DNA of 7,676 nucleotides from a virus (taxonomy: Duplodnaviria > Heunggongvirae > Uroviricota > Caudoviricetes): the IMG/VR virus record IMGVR_UViG_2623620491_000013, positions 1 through 7,676 of that record; one strand, given 5' to 3'. The translations under genes and the position numbers were made by a program. The notes beneath the pieces are model-generated. The model worked only from the letters and a program-made list of their open reading frames with translations. It searched no databases and was not told the DNA's origin. Position 1 is the first letter of the stretch. The number at the start of each line of letters is the position of its first letter. This document shows positions 1-7,676 of the stretch, piece by piece.

Positions 1-261
1 AAGCGTGCGTATTGCCTGAAAACACAACCCGCTACGGGGGAGACTTACCCGAAATCTGATTTATTCAACAAAGCCCGTCAGTGTGTGACCCCTGGCGATT
101 ATGTTCTTTATGAAGGTCGGACATATATCGCCTCGGCAAACAATATTAAAAAGAGAAAACTTTATATTCGTAGCCTGACTACAAAAACATGCATTTCTGA
201 CTGCATGATTAAAGTCTTCCTCGGTCGTGATGGTTTACCTGTAAAGGCGGAGTCATGGTAA
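1..261 (+). CDS. 3' end of an upstream prophage ORF, truncated by the window edge; product unknown
   Basis: Frame 1 is open from position 1 to TAA at 259-261 (86 sense codons, only in-frame ATG near the end), so an ATG-anchored ORF track misses it. Its stop overlaps the next start (TAATG). In the Rac gene order this slot is a kil-type gene, but I cannot confirm that from sequence. Confidence 0.4.
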
Positions 262-431
262 TGACTAAGAAAATAAAATGTGCTTATCACCTTTGCAATA
301 AAGAAATTGAAGAAAGCAAAATCATTACAAGACCACTTCATTTCATGCGTGGAGTTATACCAACGACGGAAATGAAAAAATATTGTAGTGAAATCTGTGC
401 CGAAAAAGACCAGATGGCACACGAACTTTAA
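261..431 (+). CDS. Small Cys4 zinc-ribbon protein, 56 aa (ydaE-like by position and length)
   Basis: ATG at 261 overlaps the upstream stop (TAATG); GGAG at 249-252 with 8-nt spacing; stop TAA at 429-431. Four Cys arranged C-x4-C ... C-x3-C (KCAYHLC ... YCSEIC). Not in the supplied ORF track (below size cut-off); the antisense 86-aa track ORF 162-422 is the less plausible reading. Confidence 0.55.
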   Translation: MTKKIKCAYHLCNKEIEESKIITRPLHFMRGVIPTTEMKKYCSEICAEKDQMAHEL

Positions 432-505
432 TTAACTGACTATCCGAAACTGAATTTATGCCAGCAATGGCAGGGATTCGCTCAACCTTAATTAAGGAGA
501 AAAAC

Positions 506-781
506 ATGATTACCAGTTATGAAGCCACTGTTGTTACTACTGATGACATTGTTCACGAAGTCAGCCTGGAAGGAAAGCGTATTGGCTACGTGATTAAAAC
601 AGAAAATAAAGAAGCCCCTTTCACTGTGGTTGATATCGACGGTCCATCAGGCAACGTTAAAACACTTAACGAAGGCGTCAAAAAAATGTGCCTAGTGCAT
701 ATCGGAAAGAATCTGCCCGCAGAAAAAAAAGCCGAATTTCTGGCAACTCTGATTGCAATGAAATTAAAAGGTGAAATCTGA
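506..781 (+). CDS. RacC-like small prophage protein, 91 aa
   Basis: ATG at 506 preceded by AAGGAG (494-499, 6-nt spacer); internal start of track ORF 458-781. Size and position immediately upstream of recE match racC of Rac-type prophages; assigned by synteny, not sequence recognition. Confidence 0.55.
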   Translation: MITSYEATVVTTDDIVHEVSLEGKRIGYVIKTENKEAPFTVVDIDGPSGNVKTLNEGVKKMCLVHIGKNLPAEKKAEFLATLIAMKLKGEI

Positions 782-787
782 AGAAAT

Positions 788-808
788 AGCCTGCGTATGA
801 CGCAGGCT
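788..808 (+). other. Perfect hairpin (9-bp stem AGCCTGCGT / ACGCAGGCT, 3-nt loop) in the racC-recE spacer, no U-tract
   Basis: Inverted repeat read directly from the sequence. Not followed by a T-run, so not a canonical intrinsic terminator; possibly an RNA processing/stability element or a protein-binding palindrome. Confidence 0.4.
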
Positions 809-880
809 ATGAACAGTGTGTATCCGGCAAGATTATTCACTGAACAAACGAATTTTAATCTGAGTTGAGGTTAAAAAACA

Positions 881-3800
881 ATGAGCACCGATAAACAAGT
901 TTACCCACTGTATTACGAAGCAAAAAATGACAAAGTAAGAAAACGTCTCGGTATTAAAGGCGGTTTTTACTGGGCTGAAGCGAAAAAATTATCCATTGCC
1001 ATCTCCCGTGGTGCTGTTGCGATTGACGATGCTGGCTACGATGAAGATGACTTCAAAAAACCTGTTCGCGTCAATTTGCCCGTTGTTGATGACCTCCCGC
1101 CAGAAGGCGTATTTGATACGGAATTCTGCAACCGTTACGAAAAAGGCGGGGAAGATGGCATCACAATGGTATTTATCGCGCCCTCACCCTCTGCGCAGGG
1201 CAAACCAGCCAGCACTGACAACACCAATGTTAATGGCGAAGACATGACGGAGATTGAGGAGAATATGCTACTCCCGATTTCTGGCCAGGAGCTGCCCATT
1301 CGCTGGCTTGCTCAACACGGCAGCGAAAAACCGGTAACGCACGTTTCACGCGACGAACTCCAGGCATTACACATTGCACGGGCTGAGGAACTACCAGCTG
1401 TTACTGCCCTGGCTGTTTCCCACAAAACCAGCCTGCTCGATCCGCTGGAAATTCGCGATCTCCACAAACTGGTGCGTGATACTGACAGAGTTTTCCCTAA
1501 TCCAGGCAATTCAAGCCTGGGGCTGATGACTGCTTTTTTCGAAGCATACATGGACGCAGACTACACCGATCGCGGTCTGCTGACAAAAGAGTGGATGAAA
1601 GGAAATCGTGTTTCACGCATCACGCGCACGGCTTCCGGCGCTAATGCTGGCGGCGGGAACCTCACCGATCGCGGCGAAGGTTTCGTTCACGATCTGACGT
1701 CACTGGCGCGCGACGTAGCCACTGGCGTACTGGCCCGTTCAATGGACGTGGACATTTATAACCTTCATCCGGCACACGCTAAACGTGTCGAGGAAATTAT
1801 CGCTGAAAATAAACCGCCCTTTTCTGTTTTCCGCGACAAATTCATCACCATGCCTGGCGGGCTGGATTATTCCCGTGCCATCGTGGTTGCGTCCGTAAAA
1901 GAAGCACCAATTGGGATCGAGGTTATCCCCGCACACGTCACTGAATATCTGAACAAAGTACTGACTGAAACTGATCATGCCAACCCTGATCCAGAAATCG
2001 TGGATATTGCCTGCGGTCGTTCCTCTGCCCCGATGCCGCAGCGTGTAACAGAAGAAGAAAAACAGGATGATGAAGAAAAACTGCAACCATCTTGCGCAAT
2101 GGCAGATGAACAGGCAACGGCTGAAACAGTGGAACCGGATGCAACTGAACATCATCAGGACACGCAGCCGCTGGATGCTCAGTCACAGGTAAATTCTGTT
2201 GATGCGAAATATCAGAAACTGCGGGCAGAACTCCATGAAGCCCGGAAAAACATTCCGCCCAAAAATCCTGTCGATGCAGACAAATTACTGGCTGCCTCTC
2301 GCGGAGAATTTGTTGAAGGGATTAGCGACCCGAATGATCCGAAATGGGTTAAGGGGATCCAGACCCGCGACTCTGTGTATCAGAATCAGCCAGAAACGGA
2401 ACAGAACGACCCAAATACGCAACAAAACGAGCCAGAAACGAAACAGCCTGAGCCAGTAGTGCAACAACAGGAAACGGAGAAAGTTTGCACCGCCTGCGGT
2501 AAGGCTGGCGGCGGCAACTGTCCTGACTGTGGCGCGGTGATGGGCGACGCAACGTATCAGAAAACCTTTAATGAAGAAAATCAGAATGAATATCAGGAAA
2601 AAGGTCTGGAGGAAATGGAAGGTGCTGAACATCCGCACAAGGAGAACGCTGGCAGCAATCCGCATTGCGATTGCAGTGATGAAGCTGGTGAAGCGACAGC
2701 ACCTGTAGTAACTGAAATCATGTGGCCGTCATATTTCGAGCCTGGCCGCTATGAAAACCTCCCGAACGAGGTTTATCACTCCGCCAACGGAATAAGCAGC
2801 ACAATGCTGAAGGATGCCCGCATCAGCCTGATGTATTACCACGGACGGCACATTGCCGGAACTATTCTGGGCGAGGAAAGTGATGCATTGCTGCGTGGGC
2901 GGATTATTCACAGCTATGTTCTGGAAACGGATAAATTCGCTGATGAGTATGCCATTCCGGTACCGGTTCCTGAATATGTGGTTACTACTTCTAACGAACT
3001 GATCGCCATCATTAAAAAACACAATGCCAGTCTGCCAGCACTGATGACACCAGAGCAGATGAAAGAGTGGATCGAAAGCTACAACAGCACTCTTATACAG
3101 CCACTGTCGGTAAGTGCCGGGGCCGAAGAAACAGGCATCCTTTACGGTTCGCTTCCGGAGGAATTCCGGCGTATTCCTGAGGGGGAAAAACACACAGCAT
3201 CAGCAATGAAAGCCTGTATTAAAGAATACAACGCAAGCCTCCCTCCTCTGCTGAAAGCCAGTGGAACACGGGAGCAGCTCCTGGAGCAAATTGAAACTGT
3301 AGATCCAGAACTGGCAAAAAAAGAACGTGCTAAATCTTTGCCTTACAACATCAGTGGCACAAAAGAGCAATTAACCGAAATCGCCCGGAAAATTCGCCCG
3401 GAACTGGTGACACTGGAGGACTGGCAAAAACGCCAGCAAGAAGAAAACGCCGGGAAAATGTTTATCAGTCCGGATATGTATGAACAGGCAAAAAATATTC
3501 ACGCAGCACTGCAAAACAATACTGATGCAGCAAGGCTACTCAACCACCCGGATCGCAAATCTGAAATCAGCTATTTCGGGTTTGATGAAGAAACCGGGCT
3601 GGAAATCAGGGTCCGTCCTGATATCGAAATCCGGCTGCCATACGAAAGCATTTGCGCCGACGTGAAGTCAGTCAGCCTCGGTTATGTGCGACAGGAACGA
3701 CTGAAAGATCGCCTGCACCGTGAAATTATTGAGCGTGATTATCACCTCAGCGCAGCAATGTATTGCGATGTGGCAAACCTGGACAAATTTTTCTGGATCT

Positions 3801-4009
3801 TCGTCAACAAAGATGCTGGCTATCACTGGGTGGCCGTCGTGGAAGCCTCGCAGGAACTCCTGGAACTTGGTCGACAGGAATATCGCCGGACGCTACGACA
3901 GATAAACGAAGCTCTGGAGACAAACAACTGGCCAGCACCGATTACCGAAAGTTATACCGACGAATTAAACGACTTTGATCTTCGTCGTTTTGAAGCACTG
4001 AGCATCTGA
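881..4009 (+). CDS. recE: Exodeoxyribonuclease VIII (RecE), 1042 aa, with C-terminal PD-(D/E)xK nuclease domain
   Basis: ATG at 881 with GAGG at 867-870. Protein contains segments I recognise as RecE-like ([43 protein letters not shown]...). C-terminal nuclease motif P913-D914 ... D927-V-K929 ([19 protein letters not shown]). Followed by a coupled annealing-protein gene and ralR, the Rac recET-lar arrangement. Confidence 0.82.
2486..2533 (+). other. Cys4 zinc-ribbon/knuckle motif inside RecE (C536-x2-C539-x7-C547-x2-C550)
   Basis: [16 protein letters not shown] read from the recE translation; sits just downstream of a Q/E/P/T-rich low-complexity linker. Confidence 0.5.
3005..3410 (+). repeat. 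Three imperfect tandem coding repeats (about 35-40 aa each) within the RecE C-terminal region
   Basis: Protein copies [23 protein letters not shown] / [27 protein letters not shown] / [21 protein letters not shown]. Nucleotide copies attaaaaaacacaatgccagtctgccagcactg (about 3011) and attaaagaatacaacgcaagcctccctcctctg (about 3218). Confidence 0.55.
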
Positions 4010-4020
4010 GGAAGGACACA

Positions 4021-5073
4021 ATGAACGAATTAACTCAACAAGAAAATATTAACTCTAATGTTGCGGTTTTCAGCCCTCAGTCCCTGGCTGCAATTCAGAC
4101 ATTTTCCCAGGTAATGGCTTCCGGCATGGCTACTGTACCGGAACACCTCCGGGGAAATCCATCAGACTGCATGGCCATCACCATGCAGGCGATGCAGTGG
4201 CAAATGAACCCTTACGCAGTAGCTCAGAAAACTTTCGTTGTGAATGGTGTGCTCGGATATGAAGCGCAACTGGTTAATGCCGTAATCAGTACTCGTGGGC
4301 CGCTAACCGGGCGTATTGAATATGACTGGTTCGGGCCGTGGGAAAAAATTATCGGGAAATTTGAAATTAGGAAGAACGACAAGGGGAAAGAATATCGTGT
4401 ACCTGGCTGGAAGCTGGCCGATGAAAACGGGATCGGAGTTCGCGTCCAGGCAACACTACGCGGAGAGAGCAAGCCACGCGTACTGGAGTTACTTCTGGCG
4501 CAGGCCAGAACACGTAACTCAACGTTATGGGCCGATGATCCTCGCCAGCAGCTTGCCTATCTGGCACTGAAACGCTGGGCGCGCCTTTATTGCCCTGAAG
4601 TGATTCTTGGAGTGTACACCCGGGACGAACTGGACGAACCACAGGAAAAAATCATTAATCCGGTTCAGGAACATAAAAATACATCCGCCTGCCGTGCGGA
4701 ACGTGAAACAACAATTATTGAGCAGGATGCCGGGGAAAACTGGATCAGTGCTTTCCGTGAACGTATTGAGCAGGCACAAAGCACCGGAGAAACAACATCA
4801 CTTCGCCAGGAAGTGGAAGATCATAAAAATACACTTGGCGCTCTCTACACAGAACTTAAAGGAAAAGTGGTTCAGCGTCATCACCGTCTCAATGCTATTG
4901 CCCGTATTGAGACGATGATAAATGACCTGCCTTCATCAGGTGATCCAGAAGCAGAACAAAAATTTATTGCTCTGGAAAATACGCTGAATGCTGCACGACC
5001 ACATCTGGGAGAATTATATGAGGCGTATAAAACGACACTGACAGATATGAAACCAGAATATATCGGCTCCTGA
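4021..5073 (+). CDS. RecT/Red-beta-family single-strand annealing protein, 350 aa, with a long C-terminal helical extension
   Basis: ATG at 4021; RBS GAGGAAGG (4008-4015) overlaps the recE stop (TGA 4007-4009), indicating translational coupling. N-terminal half has a Bet/RecT-like pattern (GNPSDCMAI...QWQMNPYAVAQK...GVLGYEAQ; LWADDPRQQLAYLALKRWARLY). I did not recognise the canonical K-12 RecT sequence, so the family assignment is by motif and position. Confidence 0.7.
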   Translation: MNELTQQENINSNVAVFSPQSLAAIQTFSQVMASGMATVPEHLRGNPSDCMAITMQAMQWQMNPYAVAQKTFVVNGVLGYEAQLVNAVISTRGPLTGRIEYDWFGPWEKIIGKFEIRKNDKGKEYRVPGWKLADENGIGVRVQATLRGESKPRVLELLLAQARTRNSTLWADDPRQQLAYLALKRWARLYCPEVILGVYTRDELDEPQEKIINPVQEHKNTSACRAERETTIIEQDAGENWISAFRERIEQAQSTGETTSLRQEVEDHKNTLGALYTELKGKVVQRHHRLNAIARIETMINDLPSSGDPEAEQKFIALENTLNAARPHLGELYEAYKTTLTDMKPEYIGS

Positions 5074-5080
5074 TATTTAC

Positions 5081-5106
5081 TATGGCGGTGTAGCCTCACC
5101 GCCATA
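5081..5106 (+). other. Perfect 10-bp stem hairpin (TATGGCGGTG / CACCGCCATA, 6-nt loop) between the annealing-protein stop and ralR
   Basis: Read directly from the sequence. Followed after 8 nt by a T-rich stretch (ACAAAACTTTATTTTA), so a weak terminator or leader structure for ralR. Overlaps the direct-repeat copy at 5074-5090. Confidence 0.45.
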
Positions 5107-5136
5107 ACAAAACTTTATTTTATGAGAGAAAAGACA

Positions 5137-5331
5137 ATGCGGTATGAAAAAGTCAAACCATGTCCGTTTTGTGGTTGTCCATCAGTAACGGTGAAAGCCA
5201 TTTCAGGATATTACCGCGCAAAGTGTAACGGATGCGAATCCCGAACCGGCTATAGTGGAAGTGAAAAAGAAGCACTCGAAAGATGGAATAAACGAACTAC
5301 TGGAAATAATAATGGAGGTGTTCATGTATAA
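5137..5331 (+). CDS. ralR: RalR (Lar): restriction-alleviation protein, reported to be the DNase toxin of a type I toxin-antitoxin pair in Rac
   Basis: 64 aa from ATG 5137 (purine-rich RBS GAGAGAAAAG at 5124-5133). Sequence MRYEKVKPCPFCGCPSVTVKAISGYYRAKCNGCESRTGYSGSEKEALERWNKR is recognised as Lar/RalR, with a C-x2-C ... C-x2-C zinc ribbon. The track ORF 5122-5331 is a 5-codon upstream extension. Confidence 0.85.
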   Translation: MRYEKVKPCPFCGCPSVTVKAISGYYRAKCNGCESRTGYSGSEKEALERWNKRTTGNNNGGVHV

Positions 5332-5512
5332 AATTACTACCACTATTGAAAAGGAAGGTGGCACTCCTACTAACTGGACAAGATATTCAAAATCTAAATT
5401 AACGAAATCAGAATGCGAAAAAATGCTCTCAGGGAAAAAAGAAGCAGGCGTTTCCAGAGAGCAGAAAGTAAAGCTGATAAATTTTAATTGCGAGAAACTT
5501 CTGTCCTCGTGA
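5324..5512 (+). CDS. YdaC-like small protein, 62 aa, overlapping the ralR 3' end
   Basis: ATG at 5324 with GGAGG at 5314-5318 (5-nt spacer); out-of-frame 8-nt overlap with the ralR stop (ATGTATAA). The track ORF 5255-5512 gives a longer N-terminus that lies inside ralR. Assigned by position in the Rac-type order. Confidence 0.5.
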   Translation: MYKITTTIEKEGGTPTNWTRYSKSKLTKSECEKMLSGKKEAGVSREQKVKLINFNCEKLLSS

Positions 5513-5567
5513 GTTGCATTATATACAAATTAGAACTTCATAGCTGATTATTAAAAATCAACCACAT

Positions 5568-5596
5568 CCGCCAGTATTCTGTATATTTACTGGCGG
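5568..5596 (+). other. Hairpin (9-bp stem CCGCCAGTA / TACTGGCGG, 11-nt loop) in the ydaC-xis spacer
   Basis: Read directly from the sequence; carries the second copy of the direct repeat ATATTTACT..GGCGGT also found at 5074-5090. Confidence 0.45.
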
Positions 5597-5618
5597 TCAT
5601 ATCGTAAGAGGTATGGCA

Positions 5619-5900
5619 ATGAATCTTGTGACACTCAAAACGTGGGGAAAACTCAGATATCCGGATAACCCACCATCAATATCAACGCTGAGACGATGGG
5701 CAAGGAATGGAAACATTTATCCTGCACCTGAACTACACGGGAGGAGTTACAGGGTGGTTCCGGAGGCTTTCTATATCAACCCAAATAAGGTTGATACCGA
5801 TATAACACACCATCAGCCTAATGGGCGACAAGGGAGAGACAGTCCGTTACTGGAGAAGTTAAAACATGCAGCGGAAAAAATACGATCCCAATTTGCCTAA
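5619..5900 (+). CDS. xis: Excisionase (Xis-like DNA-binding protein)
   Basis: Preferred start ATG 5619 (AAGAGG at 5606-5611, 7-nt spacer); the track start 5613 sits too close to the RBS. Overlaps the int start by 35 nt, as in lambda xis-int. Basic N-terminus with TLRRWARNG resembles the lambda Xis RRW region. Confidence 0.7.
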   Translation: MNLVTLKTWGKLRYPDNPPSISTLRRWARNGNIYPAPELHGRSYRVVPEAFYINPNKVDTDITHHQPNGRQGRDSPLLEKLKHAAEKIRSQFA

Positions 5901-6942
5901 AAACTTAACATATCGAAGGAGGGACAAAGCATATTACTGGCGCAACCCTCTGACGAAAGAAGAATTTACACTAGGTAAAATTTCAAGAAGAGATGCAGTA
6001 GCGCAGGCAATTGAAGCAAATCATTATATATACAAAAACTACTCTCCTGCTGCCTTAATTGAAAAGCTTAAAGGGTTCGACTCATTTACTATGGCAGACT
6101 GGATTGAACGTTACAAAACGATTCTTATAAGGAGAAAAGTGTCCAGAAATACTTATAAAATTCGGGTAAATCAACTGGAGACAATAAAAGAAAAATTGGG
6201 AGAGATTTTACTGACAGAAATAACCACTCGCCATATTGCCGAGTTTCTTGATTTGTGGATTGAAGGAGGGAAAAACACAATGGCAGGATCAATGCGTTCT
6301 GTGTTGTCTGATATGTTTCGTGAGGCCATTGTTGAAGGACGTATATCTCAAAATCCAGTAACGCCAACAAGAGCACCGAAAATAGTAGTTACAAGAGAAC
6401 GACTGAAACTAAAGACATACAACTGCATCAGGGAGGCAGCAGATCAACTTCCGGCATGGTTCCCATTAGCTATGGATTTAGCCCTTGTAACAGGACAACG
6501 TCGCGAAGACATAACGAATATGCGGTTTAGTGATATTTATGATGATCGTCTCCACATCAGGCAAATTAAGACAGGAATGATGATTGCTATCCCCCTGTCA
6601 CTCAGCCTTCCTGTCGCTGGTCTACGGCTTGGTACAGTAGTTGAACAGTGCCGCCTGGTAAGCCGGGGAGATTATCTAATCAGTGCCGGGATTAGAAAAA
6701 ACAGCCCTGACGGCAGCATTCACCCGGATGGCCTGACAAAAAAATTTGTCGCAGCCAGAAAATTAACAGGTATCCAGTTCAGTGAAAACCCACCAACTTT
6801 TCACGAGATCAGAAGTCTGGCTGGACGATTGTACAAAGAAACATGTGGAGAAGAATTTGCTCAGCGTCTACTTGGCCACACATCGGAGAAGACAACAAAA
6901 ATGTACCTTGATGAGAGAGAAAAAACGTACTTACTGCTCTGA
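5866..6942 (+). CDS. int: Lambda-family tyrosine integrase with N-terminal arm-binding domain
   Basis: 358 aa, colinear with lambda Int. N-terminus [22 protein letters not shown] matches lambda NLYIRNNGYYCYRDPRTGKEF; catalytic-region motifs [35 protein letters not shown] and [13 protein letters not shown] include the catalytic Tyr. GGAG at 5852-5855. Confidence 0.93.
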
Positions 6943-7008
6943 TTTTAACGTAAATGGATTGTTAAATGTATTTTGGTTGTGATATAACCAAAAAAGACTG
7001 GAATACAG

Positions 7009-7039
7009 AAATTCGAGTAAATTTCGGGGAATTTCGGGG
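7009..7039 (+). repeat. Tandem direct repeats: exact 10-bp AATTTCGGGG twice (7020-7039) plus a degenerate adjacent copy (7009-7019); candidate arm-type Int binding sites
   Basis: Repeats read directly. Three tandem short direct repeats between the int stop and the putative core mirror the P'1-P'3 arrangement of lambda attP. Function is inferred. Confidence 0.45.
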
Positions 7040-7048
7040 AGACGTTTG

Positions 7049-7061
7049 CAACTGATTGATT
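7049..7061 (-). promoter_or_regulatory. IHF consensus site (AATCAATCAGTTG = WATCAANNNNTTR) on the - strand
   Basis: Exact match to the IHF consensus, lying between the tandem repeats and the sdsR terminator palindrome, analogous to the H' site of lambda attP. Confidence 0.4.
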
Positions 7062-7073
7062 TTAAATACAATT

Positions 7074-7176
7074 AAAAAAAGACCGAATACGATTCCTGTA
7101 TTCGGTCCAGGGAAATGGCTCTTGGGAGAGAGCCGTGCGCTAAAAGTTGGCATTAATGCAGGCTTAGTTGCCTTGC
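7074..7176 (-). ncRNA. sdsR: SdsR (RyeB) small RNA
   Basis: The - strand reads GCAAGGCAACTAAGCCTGCATTAATGCCAACTTTTAGCGCACGGCTCTCTCCCAAGAGCCATTTCCCTGGACCGAATACAGGAATCGTATTCGGTC followed by T7, which I recognise as SdsR with its intrinsic terminator. A sigma-S type -10 lies immediately upstream. Confidence 0.8.
7081..7107. other. Candidate att core: perfect inverted repeat GACCGAATAC / GTATTCGGTC around a 7-bp spacer (GATTCCT), coincident with the sdsR terminator stem-loop
   Basis: Two inverted 10-bp half-sites around a 7-bp spacer resemble a C-overlap-C' core. Distances to the IHF site (about 35 bp) and tandem repeats (about 55-75 bp) approximate the lambda P' arm geometry. Inference only; the junction could lie further left (6943-7045). 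Confidence 0.35.
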
Positions 7177-7215
7177 CCTTTAAGAATAGATGACGACGCC
7201 AGGTTTTCCAGTTTG
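7177..7215 (-). promoter_or_regulatory. sdsR promoter with sigma-S type extended -10 (TCTATTCTTAA)
   Basis: On the - strand TCTATTCTTAAAGG immediately precedes the SdsR 5' end (plus coordinates 7177-7190); this is a near match to the sigma-S -10 consensus TCTATACTTAA including the -13 C. SdsR is a known RpoS-dependent sRNA. Confidence 0.55.
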
Positions 7216-7263
7216 CGTGCAAAATGGTCAATAAAAAGCGTGGTGGTCATCAGCTGAAATGTT

Positions 7264-7305
7264 AAAAACCGCCCGTTCTGGTGAAAGAACTGAGGCGGTT
7301 TTTTT
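7264..7305. terminator. Bidirectional intrinsic terminator between ryeA (+) and yebY (-)
   Basis: A5 (7264-7268), imperfect stem CCGCC-C-GTTCT ... AGAAC-TGA-GGCGG (7269-7298), T7 (7299-7305). U-tract on both strands: 7 U for the + strand transcript, 5 U for the - strand. Confidence 0.7.
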
Positions 7306-7334
7306 ATTGGAAATCAAAAGGCTATTTTAGGTAA

Positions 7335-7676
7335 TTAACAGAGTTTTTCAGCTCGTTCTATAAACGGTGCCAGACTCATTTTTTCGCCGGGATTGTTAGG
7401 ATCATCAATCTGAATCACCGAAATGGGTTGGGCATTGGTCTTCCCACTGGCAACTTCCTTTTGTGCGATATCGTTTAAAGGATACTGCACGAGGGTACTC
7501 GGATTAATAACATACAAAGCATTACCCGGTCGGCAAGTCAGCATCACCTCTTCGCGATTAAACGCCCATTTGTCTTTACCCACTTCAAAACGACTGACGG
7601 TAATCACCTGCGGTGCAGCCAGCGCCGCTGCAGAACTGGTGAGTAACAGAAACGCCAGAATACTTTTTTTCATCAT
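7335..7676 (-). CDS. yebY: YebY (DUF2511-type secreted protein) with Sec signal peptide
   Basis: 113 aa ORF; N-terminus [23 protein letters not shown] is a typical signal peptide with an AxA cleavage site. Length and position next to sdsR match yebY of E. coli. The start codon is at the window edge, so start choice (7676 or 7673) and RBS cannot be checked. Confidence 0.7.

Follow-up and report, generated by a model that had tools for sequence, protein, structure and literature searches.

Known RecE nucleases and the locus examined

RecET is a main tool of recombineering, and its structural study has been limited to the nuclease domain of Escherichia coli K-12 RecE, in which the DNA-capture loops were never resolved. 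One such loop, residues 665-698, has no ordered structure in crystals without DNA and can be seen in part in complexes with DNA. It lies on the rim of the channel and is thought to capture double-stranded DNA (PMC11611040, a review co-authored by the laboratory behind structure 3H4R). Consistent with a disordered loop, 3H4R has 265 residues in its sequence, of which 219 are modelled. Here, we describe a RecE in which the place of this loop is taken by a 153-aa insertion domain, predicted to be built from four helix/extended-loop/helix units that resemble SAP domains. We refer to this insertion as the module. Its gene lies in a stretch of 7,676 nt (IMG/VR record IMGVR_UViG_2623620491_000013, positions 1 to 7,676; hereafter, the window), which represents the early-left region of a Rac-like prophage with an integration site adjoining yebY.

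The window RecE has much in common with the RecE of the K-12 Rac prophage (3H4R): the PD-(D/E)XK core, the recE-recT gene order, and nearly the same N-terminal region of ~600 aa. The two systems differ in that K-12 RecE has a disordered loop of ~34 residues (665-698) where the window RecE has a folded 153-aa domain, and in that K-12 RecT is unrelated by BLASTP to the window RecT, which alone has an extra C-terminal domain. Much closer are the RecE proteins of Gifsy-1 and Gifsy-2 and their relatives (mEp237, HK225, SPN3UB, Rac-SA53, Klebsiella prophages, and pAEv1818). These belong to the same nuclease subfamily, carry the four-unit module at 40-97% identity, and have the same long RecT partner. 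We find no essential difference between these systems and the window, which is the E. coli member of the group. The gene is of a kind already known (Gifsy-type RecE); what is new is the multi-SAP-like insertion domain within the RecE nuclease.

An accessory SAP domain is found in FAN1, a PD-(D/E)XK nuclease of the VRR-nuc type, where it grips the duplex away from the active site (PMC4201288). In FAN1, one SAP domain precedes the nuclease on its N-terminal side, whereas the RecE module has four units inserted within the nuclease. FAN1 is also a structure-specific endo/exonuclease that acts as a monomer or dimer and forms no ring. No sequence relationship between FAN1 and the RecE module was detected.

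A helical domain is inserted into the RecE nuclease

The features on which the comparison with K-12 RecE is based are as follows.

881-4009, forward strand: recE-like gene, 1042 aa (open reading frame list, Pfam, and BLASTP against K-12 RecE)
2750-2950, forward strand: N-terminal nuclease segment, residues 624-690 (alignment to 3H4R and K-12 RecE)
2972-3430, forward strand: the module, an all-α insertion domain of 153 aa, residues 698-850 (AlphaFold2 model)
3452-4006, forward strand: C-terminal nuclease core, residues 858-1042, containing P913-D914, D927, and K929

Profile matches, catalytic residues, and predicted fold together indicate that the gene product is a RecE-type PD-(D/E)XK exonuclease. 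RefSeq labels the gene recE / exodeoxyribonuclease VIII. Pfam Exonuc_VIII covers residues 52-189 (128 bits), and DUF3799 (PF12684) scores 49.8 bits (curated cut-off, 26); the module divides the DUF3799 match into two stretches, the better of which spans residues 855-1019. The catalytic His...PD...DxK residues are present (H677, P913-D914, and D927-V-K929, against H652, RPD 746-748, and D759-V-K761 in K-12). H677 (nt 2909-2911) aligns with His-652 of K-12, an active-site residue (PMC11611040). The nuclease domains of the two proteins share 29% local identity (hhalign, 96%), and phmmer matches residues 894-1023 to 3H4R (E=8.7e-7). Furthermore, 3H4R is the best PDB match of the predicted structure in Foldseek (E=3.4e-7), followed by Cas4, MGME1, and the AddAB nucleases.

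Alignments to K-12 RecE, both hhalign and global, are unreliable within the insertion, and only the two anchors that flank it were used. On the left, GRIIH677SYVLE...F aligns with GTAFH652CRVLE...F of K-12; on the right, G858-K-M-F-I-S aligns with G693-K-T-V-I-T. With anchors on both sides, residues 691-857 of the window RecE replace K-12 residues 665-692. Neither the DUF3799 profile nor the PHROG 607 profile contains the module, which is inserted between positions ~53-64 of the former.

A preliminary description of this DNA had placed a triplicated helical repeat at nt 3005-3410 (RecE residues 709-844), between a nuclease-like segment and the catalytic motifs, and had proposed that it might account for part of the length difference from K-12 RecE. 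The pairwise alignment agrees: the module lies inside the nuclease domain, K-12 RecE is without it, and it explains most of the 176-aa difference (~157 aa in the nuclease domain, with ~19 aa upstream). The flanking motifs are where that description put them (a 12-letter motif at residue 632, a 10-letter motif at residue 673, P913-D914, D927, and K929). The position of the module between them is likewise as described, with slightly wider boundaries, at residues 698-850.

The module consists of four homologous units

Within the module, we distinguish four units and a connector.

2987-3088, forward strand: unit 1, residues 703-736, with a short loop of 6 residues and without the G-K signature
3050-3148, forward strand: unit 2, degenerate, residues 724-756 (z=5.0 against unit 3; modelled helices)
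3149-3193, forward strand: connector, residues 757-771, conserved in the 21-sequence alignment
3194-3304, forward strand: unit 3, residues 772-808, the best SAP-like unit
3305-3400, forward strand: unit 4, residues 809-840, with G826 invariant and K828 95% conserved

The copies were compared by local BLOSUM62 alignments against 2000 shuffles. Copy A (residues 703-742) aligns with copy B (772-811) at a score of 64 (z=11.0, 0/2000 shuffles), and copy B with copy C (813-843) at a score of 53 (z=8.1, 0/2000 shuffles). Copies A and C compared directly show no significant similarity (z=0.6), and the link between them runs only via B. A fourth, degenerate copy at residues 727-750 also matches B (z=5.0, P about 0.001). 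Profiles of units 1, 3, and 4 (U1, U3, and U4), built from 21 homologues, give the same picture: hhalign relates U3 to U4 with a probability of 95.7% (E=1e-8) and to U1 with a probability of 97.3% (E=2e-11). The units are homologous to one another. Thus, the repetition seen in the preliminary description holds at the protein level (z=11, z=8), although its count of three missed the degenerate copy, and its single unit size of ~35 aa gives way to four units with two periods, of about 20 and 31 aa.

Several residues recur from unit to unit. The first helices end in an invariant Asn (N715, N735, and N784), followed by x-[ST]-L-P. The second helix of units 3 and 4 begins with S-G-[TS]-[KR] (G795 and R797; G826 and K828), and at least 90% of homologues retain K792, G795, and R797 of unit 3. 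Unit 2 shares the helix 724-736 with unit 1 and continues with a loop and the helix AEETGILYG. Y755 at its end is nearly invariant in the 21-sequence alignment, as are L758 and P759 of the connector.

The units are predicted to have a SAP-like fold

The module was modelled alone with AlphaFold2, using the 21-sequence alignment. The model has a predicted local distance difference test score (pLDDT) of 91.4 and a predicted template modelling score of 0.71, with helices at residues 704-717, 724-736, 748-756, 773-786, 797-807, 809-816, and 828-838. A model of the whole nuclease domain reproduces these helices, with pLDDT of 85-92 in the module. Four helix/extended-loop/helix units are predicted to build one compact all-α domain, and the repeated fold that could be expected from the sequence repeat is found in the model.

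Searches with the whole module brought up no related structure: Foldseek found no match in the PDB, and a whole-module profile searched against PDB sequences returned only noise (Cas1, SMC5, and YnjE). Single units, at about 35 residues, have the helix/extended-loop/helix (HeH) shape of SAP domains. Among 48,164 chains compared, the top 50 include six SAP domains and the HeH domain of the Rho N terminus (1zrj, 8kcy_K, 1kcf_B, 2do5, 2do1, 1v66, and 1a62), the best four superimposing at 1.7-2.0 Å across 35-37 residues. Because such chains make up a tiny fraction of the library, their number in the top 50 is, by a rough estimate, far above chance.

Sequence profiles point in the same direction. 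Pfam SAP is matched in 11 of the 21 homologous modules, where the matches fall on unit 4, and SAP_new25 in 7 of the 21. For Pfam SAP, two of the more divergent modules score 25.8 and 26.4 bits, above its cut-off of 23.9. The unit-4 profile also matches the SAP domain of MKL1 (2kvu; LPVSGTKTELIERL; E=0.0046). Below threshold, the module matches Ish1, DUF7668, Thymopoietin, and Seryl_tRNA_N in Pfam; the window sequence itself yields such hints for Ish1 and SAP_new25. Two of these families, Ish1 and Thymopoietin (LEM-like), have HeH-type folds; they agree with a SAP-like assignment and are no independent evidence for it.

The module departs from known SAP and HeH systems (MKL1, hnRNPUL1 (E1B-AP5), DEK, PIAS1, Ydc2, and the Rho N-terminal domain) in several respects. 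These have a single free-standing motif, whereas the module has four fused units; the loops of units 1 and 2 are shortened or degenerate and lack Gly-Lys; and the module carries a net acidic charge, lies inside a phage nuclease, and, in the window sequence, falls below the Pfam cut-off. The Gly at the loop end and the basic start of helix 2 are found in units 3 and 4. Since the window sequence is under the cut-off and units 1 and 2 are without the signature, we call the units SAP-like (HeH) and do not assign the domain to the SAP family.

One other candidate was rejected. The unit profiles match the WH2 actin-binding motifs of N-WASP with a summed E value of 2.5e-7 and an E value of at least 1 per stretch. 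The matches are just 11-13 residues long (SGxKxxLLxxIR), and no LKKV comes after them; we take them for convergence of a short helix.

The module is conserved within one RecE subfamily

In the sequence searches, the module is restricted to one RecE subfamily. Scanning 1.84 billion representatives of 50%-identity clusters with HMMER yielded only 57 module proteins, 46 of them at E<=1e-10. Full-length matches are nearly all ~800-1340 aa long, with the module at about two-thirds of their length. All ten module proteins that were scanned match the DUF3799 profile (one, P0157, below the curated cut-off), and several of these also have an Exonuc_VIII N terminus. Precomputed domain lists of module proteins carry no Pfam annotation on the module, and full-text literature searches, which left many subscription papers outside their reach, found no paper describing it.

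All units are collinear in homologues from Salmonella, Citrobacter, and other genera at 52-70% identity. The module retains its fixed length of 153 aa down to 28% identity, in phages of Salmonella, Klebsiella, Serratia, Proteus, and Aeromonas as well as in distant metagenomic proteins. It occurs in 20 phage records, always within recE; carriers include Rac-SA53, Gifsy-1, Gifsy-2, SPN3UB, FSL SP-016, mEp237, HK225, PHB10, Klebsiella prophages, and Aeromonas pAEv1818. Species-representative genomes contain 69 module loci, nearly all from Enterobacterales, in a sample that was drawn with a 6-sequence alignment and is biased to close relatives. Within E. coli, the nuclease-domain DNA is present at 95-99.8% identity in 192 of 5426 complete genomes, annotated as recE or “PD-(D/E)XK nuclease-like domain-containing protein”. 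The ratio of nonsynonymous to synonymous substitution rates (dN/dS) in the module is about 0.10-0.17, similar to that of the nuclease core, an estimate limited by saturation of dS. This points to purifying selection on the module.

The module is 153-154 aa long in about 135 of 148 loci. A rare 204-aa form has one added unit of 20 aa and one of 31 aa (P0129, P0150, P0155, L070, and L140/L146). In near and distant lineages, these two units are always gained together (+51 aa), which hints that N- and C-terminal units pack pairwise. In one such locus (L070, 3263-6233), the protein sequences of the added units are near-identical to those of the units beside them. Units can thus duplicate, though this is not so in the window RecE.

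Three further observations concern individual carriers. Actinobacillus phage vB_Apl-pPE4 (PP818812.1) has a recE module 96.7% identical to that of E. coli, which is unexpectedly close for a phage of Pasteurellaceae. The most divergent carrier (L156, 2161-4548) is a stand-alone DUF3799 nuclease of 430 aa without the RecE N terminus. At two distant loci (L157, 3313-3999, and L162, 3299-3997), the gene directly before the module-bearing recE encodes a pentapeptide-repeat protein of 228-232 aa; these proteins could be candidates for a DNA-mimicking, Gam-like anti-RecBCD function.

The module co-occurs with a C-terminal domain of RecT

Downstream of recE, the window encodes the partner annealase.

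4021-5073, forward strand: RecT-family annealase, 350 aa (Pfam RecT at residues 30-209)
4729-5070, forward strand: C-terminal domain of RecT, ~115 aa, residues 237-350, presumably helical and without counterpart in K-12 RecT

K-12 RecT has 269 aa and lacks this domain, and BLASTP detects no similarity between the two RecTs. PHROG 561 spans the C-terminal domain; Pfam contains nothing that matches it, and its profile finds no meaningful match in the PDB. In each of the five annotated phage loci that bear the module, RecT is long (350-373 aa) and has a conserved C-terminal domain, which is kept in Gifsy-1, mEp237, Klebsiella, and Aeromonas pAEv1818. In pAEv1818, the C-terminal domain is retained even though the RecT core is only 24% identical, which argues for linkage at the level of domains.

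The association is reciprocal in larger samples. Every module locus with enough downstream DNA encodes the RecT C-terminal domain (70/70), and 78 of 80 loci with the C-terminal domain encode the module. One of the two exceptions (L126) has no RecE at the locus. The RecT tails of six distant module-bearing systems give no significant match to the C-terminal-domain profile (best, 8.4 bits), so the co-occurrence is shown for Enterobacterales and Aeromonas only.

The second exception is a deletion fusion. In this IMG/VR prophage (L117, 4840-6264), the N-terminal domain of RecE is fused in-frame to the C-terminal domain of RecT. RecE residues 18-386 are represented at 50% identity, and the nuclease domain and the RecT core are deleted. 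Elsewhere, the partner of the most divergent RecE (L156) is a 360-aa protein without a Pfam match on record. It has a Pro/Glu-rich linker followed by a low-complexity acidic tail (...EEDDLI) that resembles the tail of SSB.

Possible roles of the module

In the reading that we favour, with chances about even, the module is a folded accessory domain of RecE, a 5'->3' dsDNA exonuclease, and serves dsDNA capture where the duplex enters the ring. Its DNA binding and its placement in the ring would follow from the insertion site and from the conserved basic residues: ten basic positions of the module are conserved in at least 70% of homologues. The flexible DNA-capture loop of K-12 type would have become a folded domain, with four SAP-like repeats, at the mouth of the channel, and the four copies of the module in a tetrameric ring would hold the incoming duplex. 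K792, R797, K828, and their neighbours, at the junctions between loop and helix 2, may contact the DNA backbone. FAN1 provides a precedent, its SAP domain gripping duplex phosphates via three lysines (PMC4201288). Both end capture and processive resection would benefit from the module, with the 5' strand being degraded by the PD...DxK core and the 3' strand receiving RecT. The function suggested in the preliminary description, a DNA- or protein-binding insertion, is still apt as a class; it can now be sharpened to SAP-like helix/extended-loop/helix repeats.

Several findings weigh against a role in DNA capture. The module is net acidic in 21 of 21 homologues (charge -2 to -10, pI 4.6-5.7), which would be uncommon in a general DNA-binding domain. 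The Gly-Lys signature is missing from units 1 and 2. In the window module, PF02037 is not reported, and SAP_new25 reaches only 13.6-13.7 bits on unit 3 against a cut-off of 26.3; the SAP matches listed span only the half of the domain formed by the loop and helix 2 (profile positions 19-35 of 37). The nuclease core, to which the module would have to be oriented, is modelled with only moderate confidence (pLDDT of 55-78). Moreover, co-occurrence with the RecT C-terminal domain fits protein docking equally well.

Docking is the strongest alternative, though we consider it unlikely: the module would bind the ~115-aa C-terminal domain of the cognate RecT and so couple resection to RecT loading. 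Such an arrangement would be analogous to the binding of lambda Exo by the C-terminal domain of Red-beta, and it draws on the 70/70 and 78/80 co-occurrence and on the long RecT of every annotated module phage locus. Protein contacts are also among the functions of SAP/HeH folds, and the acidity of the module points the same way. RecE-RecT pairs are reportedly partner-specific, a finding attributed to Muyrers et al. in 2000. However, the module is always co-inherited with the rest of the Gifsy-type nuclease domain, from which co-occurrence cannot separate it; the locus samples lean to close relatives, mostly Enterobacterales; and the RecT tails of the six distant module systems do not match the C-terminal-domain profile. 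The corresponding K-12 loop also sits at the rim, the presumed entry side for DNA, whereas lambda Exo binds the C-terminal domain of Red-beta on the face where the 3' strand exits (PMC11611040).

Capture of DNA and docking of RecT are compatible and not mutually exclusive. The SAP-like domain and the RecT C-terminal domain might even form a co-evolving docking pair, unlike that of lambda Exo and Red-beta, in which the module holds both duplex and annealase; this combined role seems rather improbable to us. If true, compact multi-SAP arrays would exist in phage recombination enzymes, with a bearing on the prokaryotic or viral ancestry of the largely eukaryotic SAP motif.

A structural or regulatory role is more doubtful still. 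As an oligomerisation or lid domain, the module might alter ring assembly or gate the channel; alternatively, it might shield the enzyme, or interact with host factors, through an acidic surface that mimics DNA. Its compact and confidently predicted fold, fixed length, and net acidity are in keeping with this, and the paired gains in the 204-aa forms suggest that N- and C-terminal units pack as a rigid body. We find no evidence for a specific partner or an effect on assembly, however, and the Gly-Lys/Arg signatures of units 3 and 4 are features of nucleic-acid contact in SAP domains. The homologous K-12 loop is also reported to become ordered with DNA.

Module-bearing RecE is common in prophages of E. 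coli, Salmonella, and Klebsiella, including Gifsy-1/2. A folded module gives practical access to the way in which the ring takes hold of DNA ends and, possibly, recruits RecT. The module would be of moderate interest, chiefly for work on phage recombination and recombineering. RecE proteins of this type may supply genome engineering with variants that differ in processivity or partner specificity.

Age of the repeats

The preliminary description had reported nucleotide-level similarity between the first two copies and had taken it as a sign of recent duplication. Neither claim survives. A DNA repeat search of the module found nothing longer than 27 nt at 70% identity, only short and weak matches, and Tandem Repeats Finder found no tandem repeat inside the module. 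The single noticeable match (3059-3085 against 3206-3232, 70%) arises from the degenerate unit 2. In codon alignment, nucleotide identity is 56% between copies A and B and 46% between B and C. Identical residues use the same codon in 9 of 17 (A/B) and 8 of 15 (B/C) cases, where the codon usage of the gene predicts 7.4 and 6.6 (P=0.29 and 0.31); codon sharing is thus at chance.

The module is thus old within the Gifsy-type RecE subfamily and did not arise by recent duplication. A recent and essentially neutral origin of the repeat, by internal duplication in the E. coli prophage lineage, can be set aside almost entirely: the similarity between copies is genuine at the protein level, and some homologues (L070 from Silvania and L140/L146) do carry extra units near-identical in protein, but the nucleotide sequences add no signal to the protein similarity, the four units are collinear in homologues down to 28% identity, and dN/dS is low (about 0.10-0.17).

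Just downstream of the module, recE contains a separate tandem repeat of 24 nt (nt 3488-3532, 1.9 copies, 81% match), which encodes part of a helix.

Other features of the locus

The N-terminal ~600 aa of the window RecE are Rac/K-12-like. By BLASTP, residues 58 to ~600 are mostly 85-95% identical to K-12 RecE, and the identity collapses at about residue 605. This places a mosaic junction within recE near nt 2690, downstream of which both the nuclease domain and RecT in its entirety belong to the Gifsy type. Nuclease domain and annealase thus move as a single cassette.

Further downstream, the window encodes an integrase, together with an excisionase and small genes.

5866-6942: integrase

Just upstream of the nuclease domain, RecE has a Cys-x2-Cys...Cys-x2-Cys cluster (nt 2486-2536, residues 536-552) in common with K-12 RecE, which may be a zinc ribbon.

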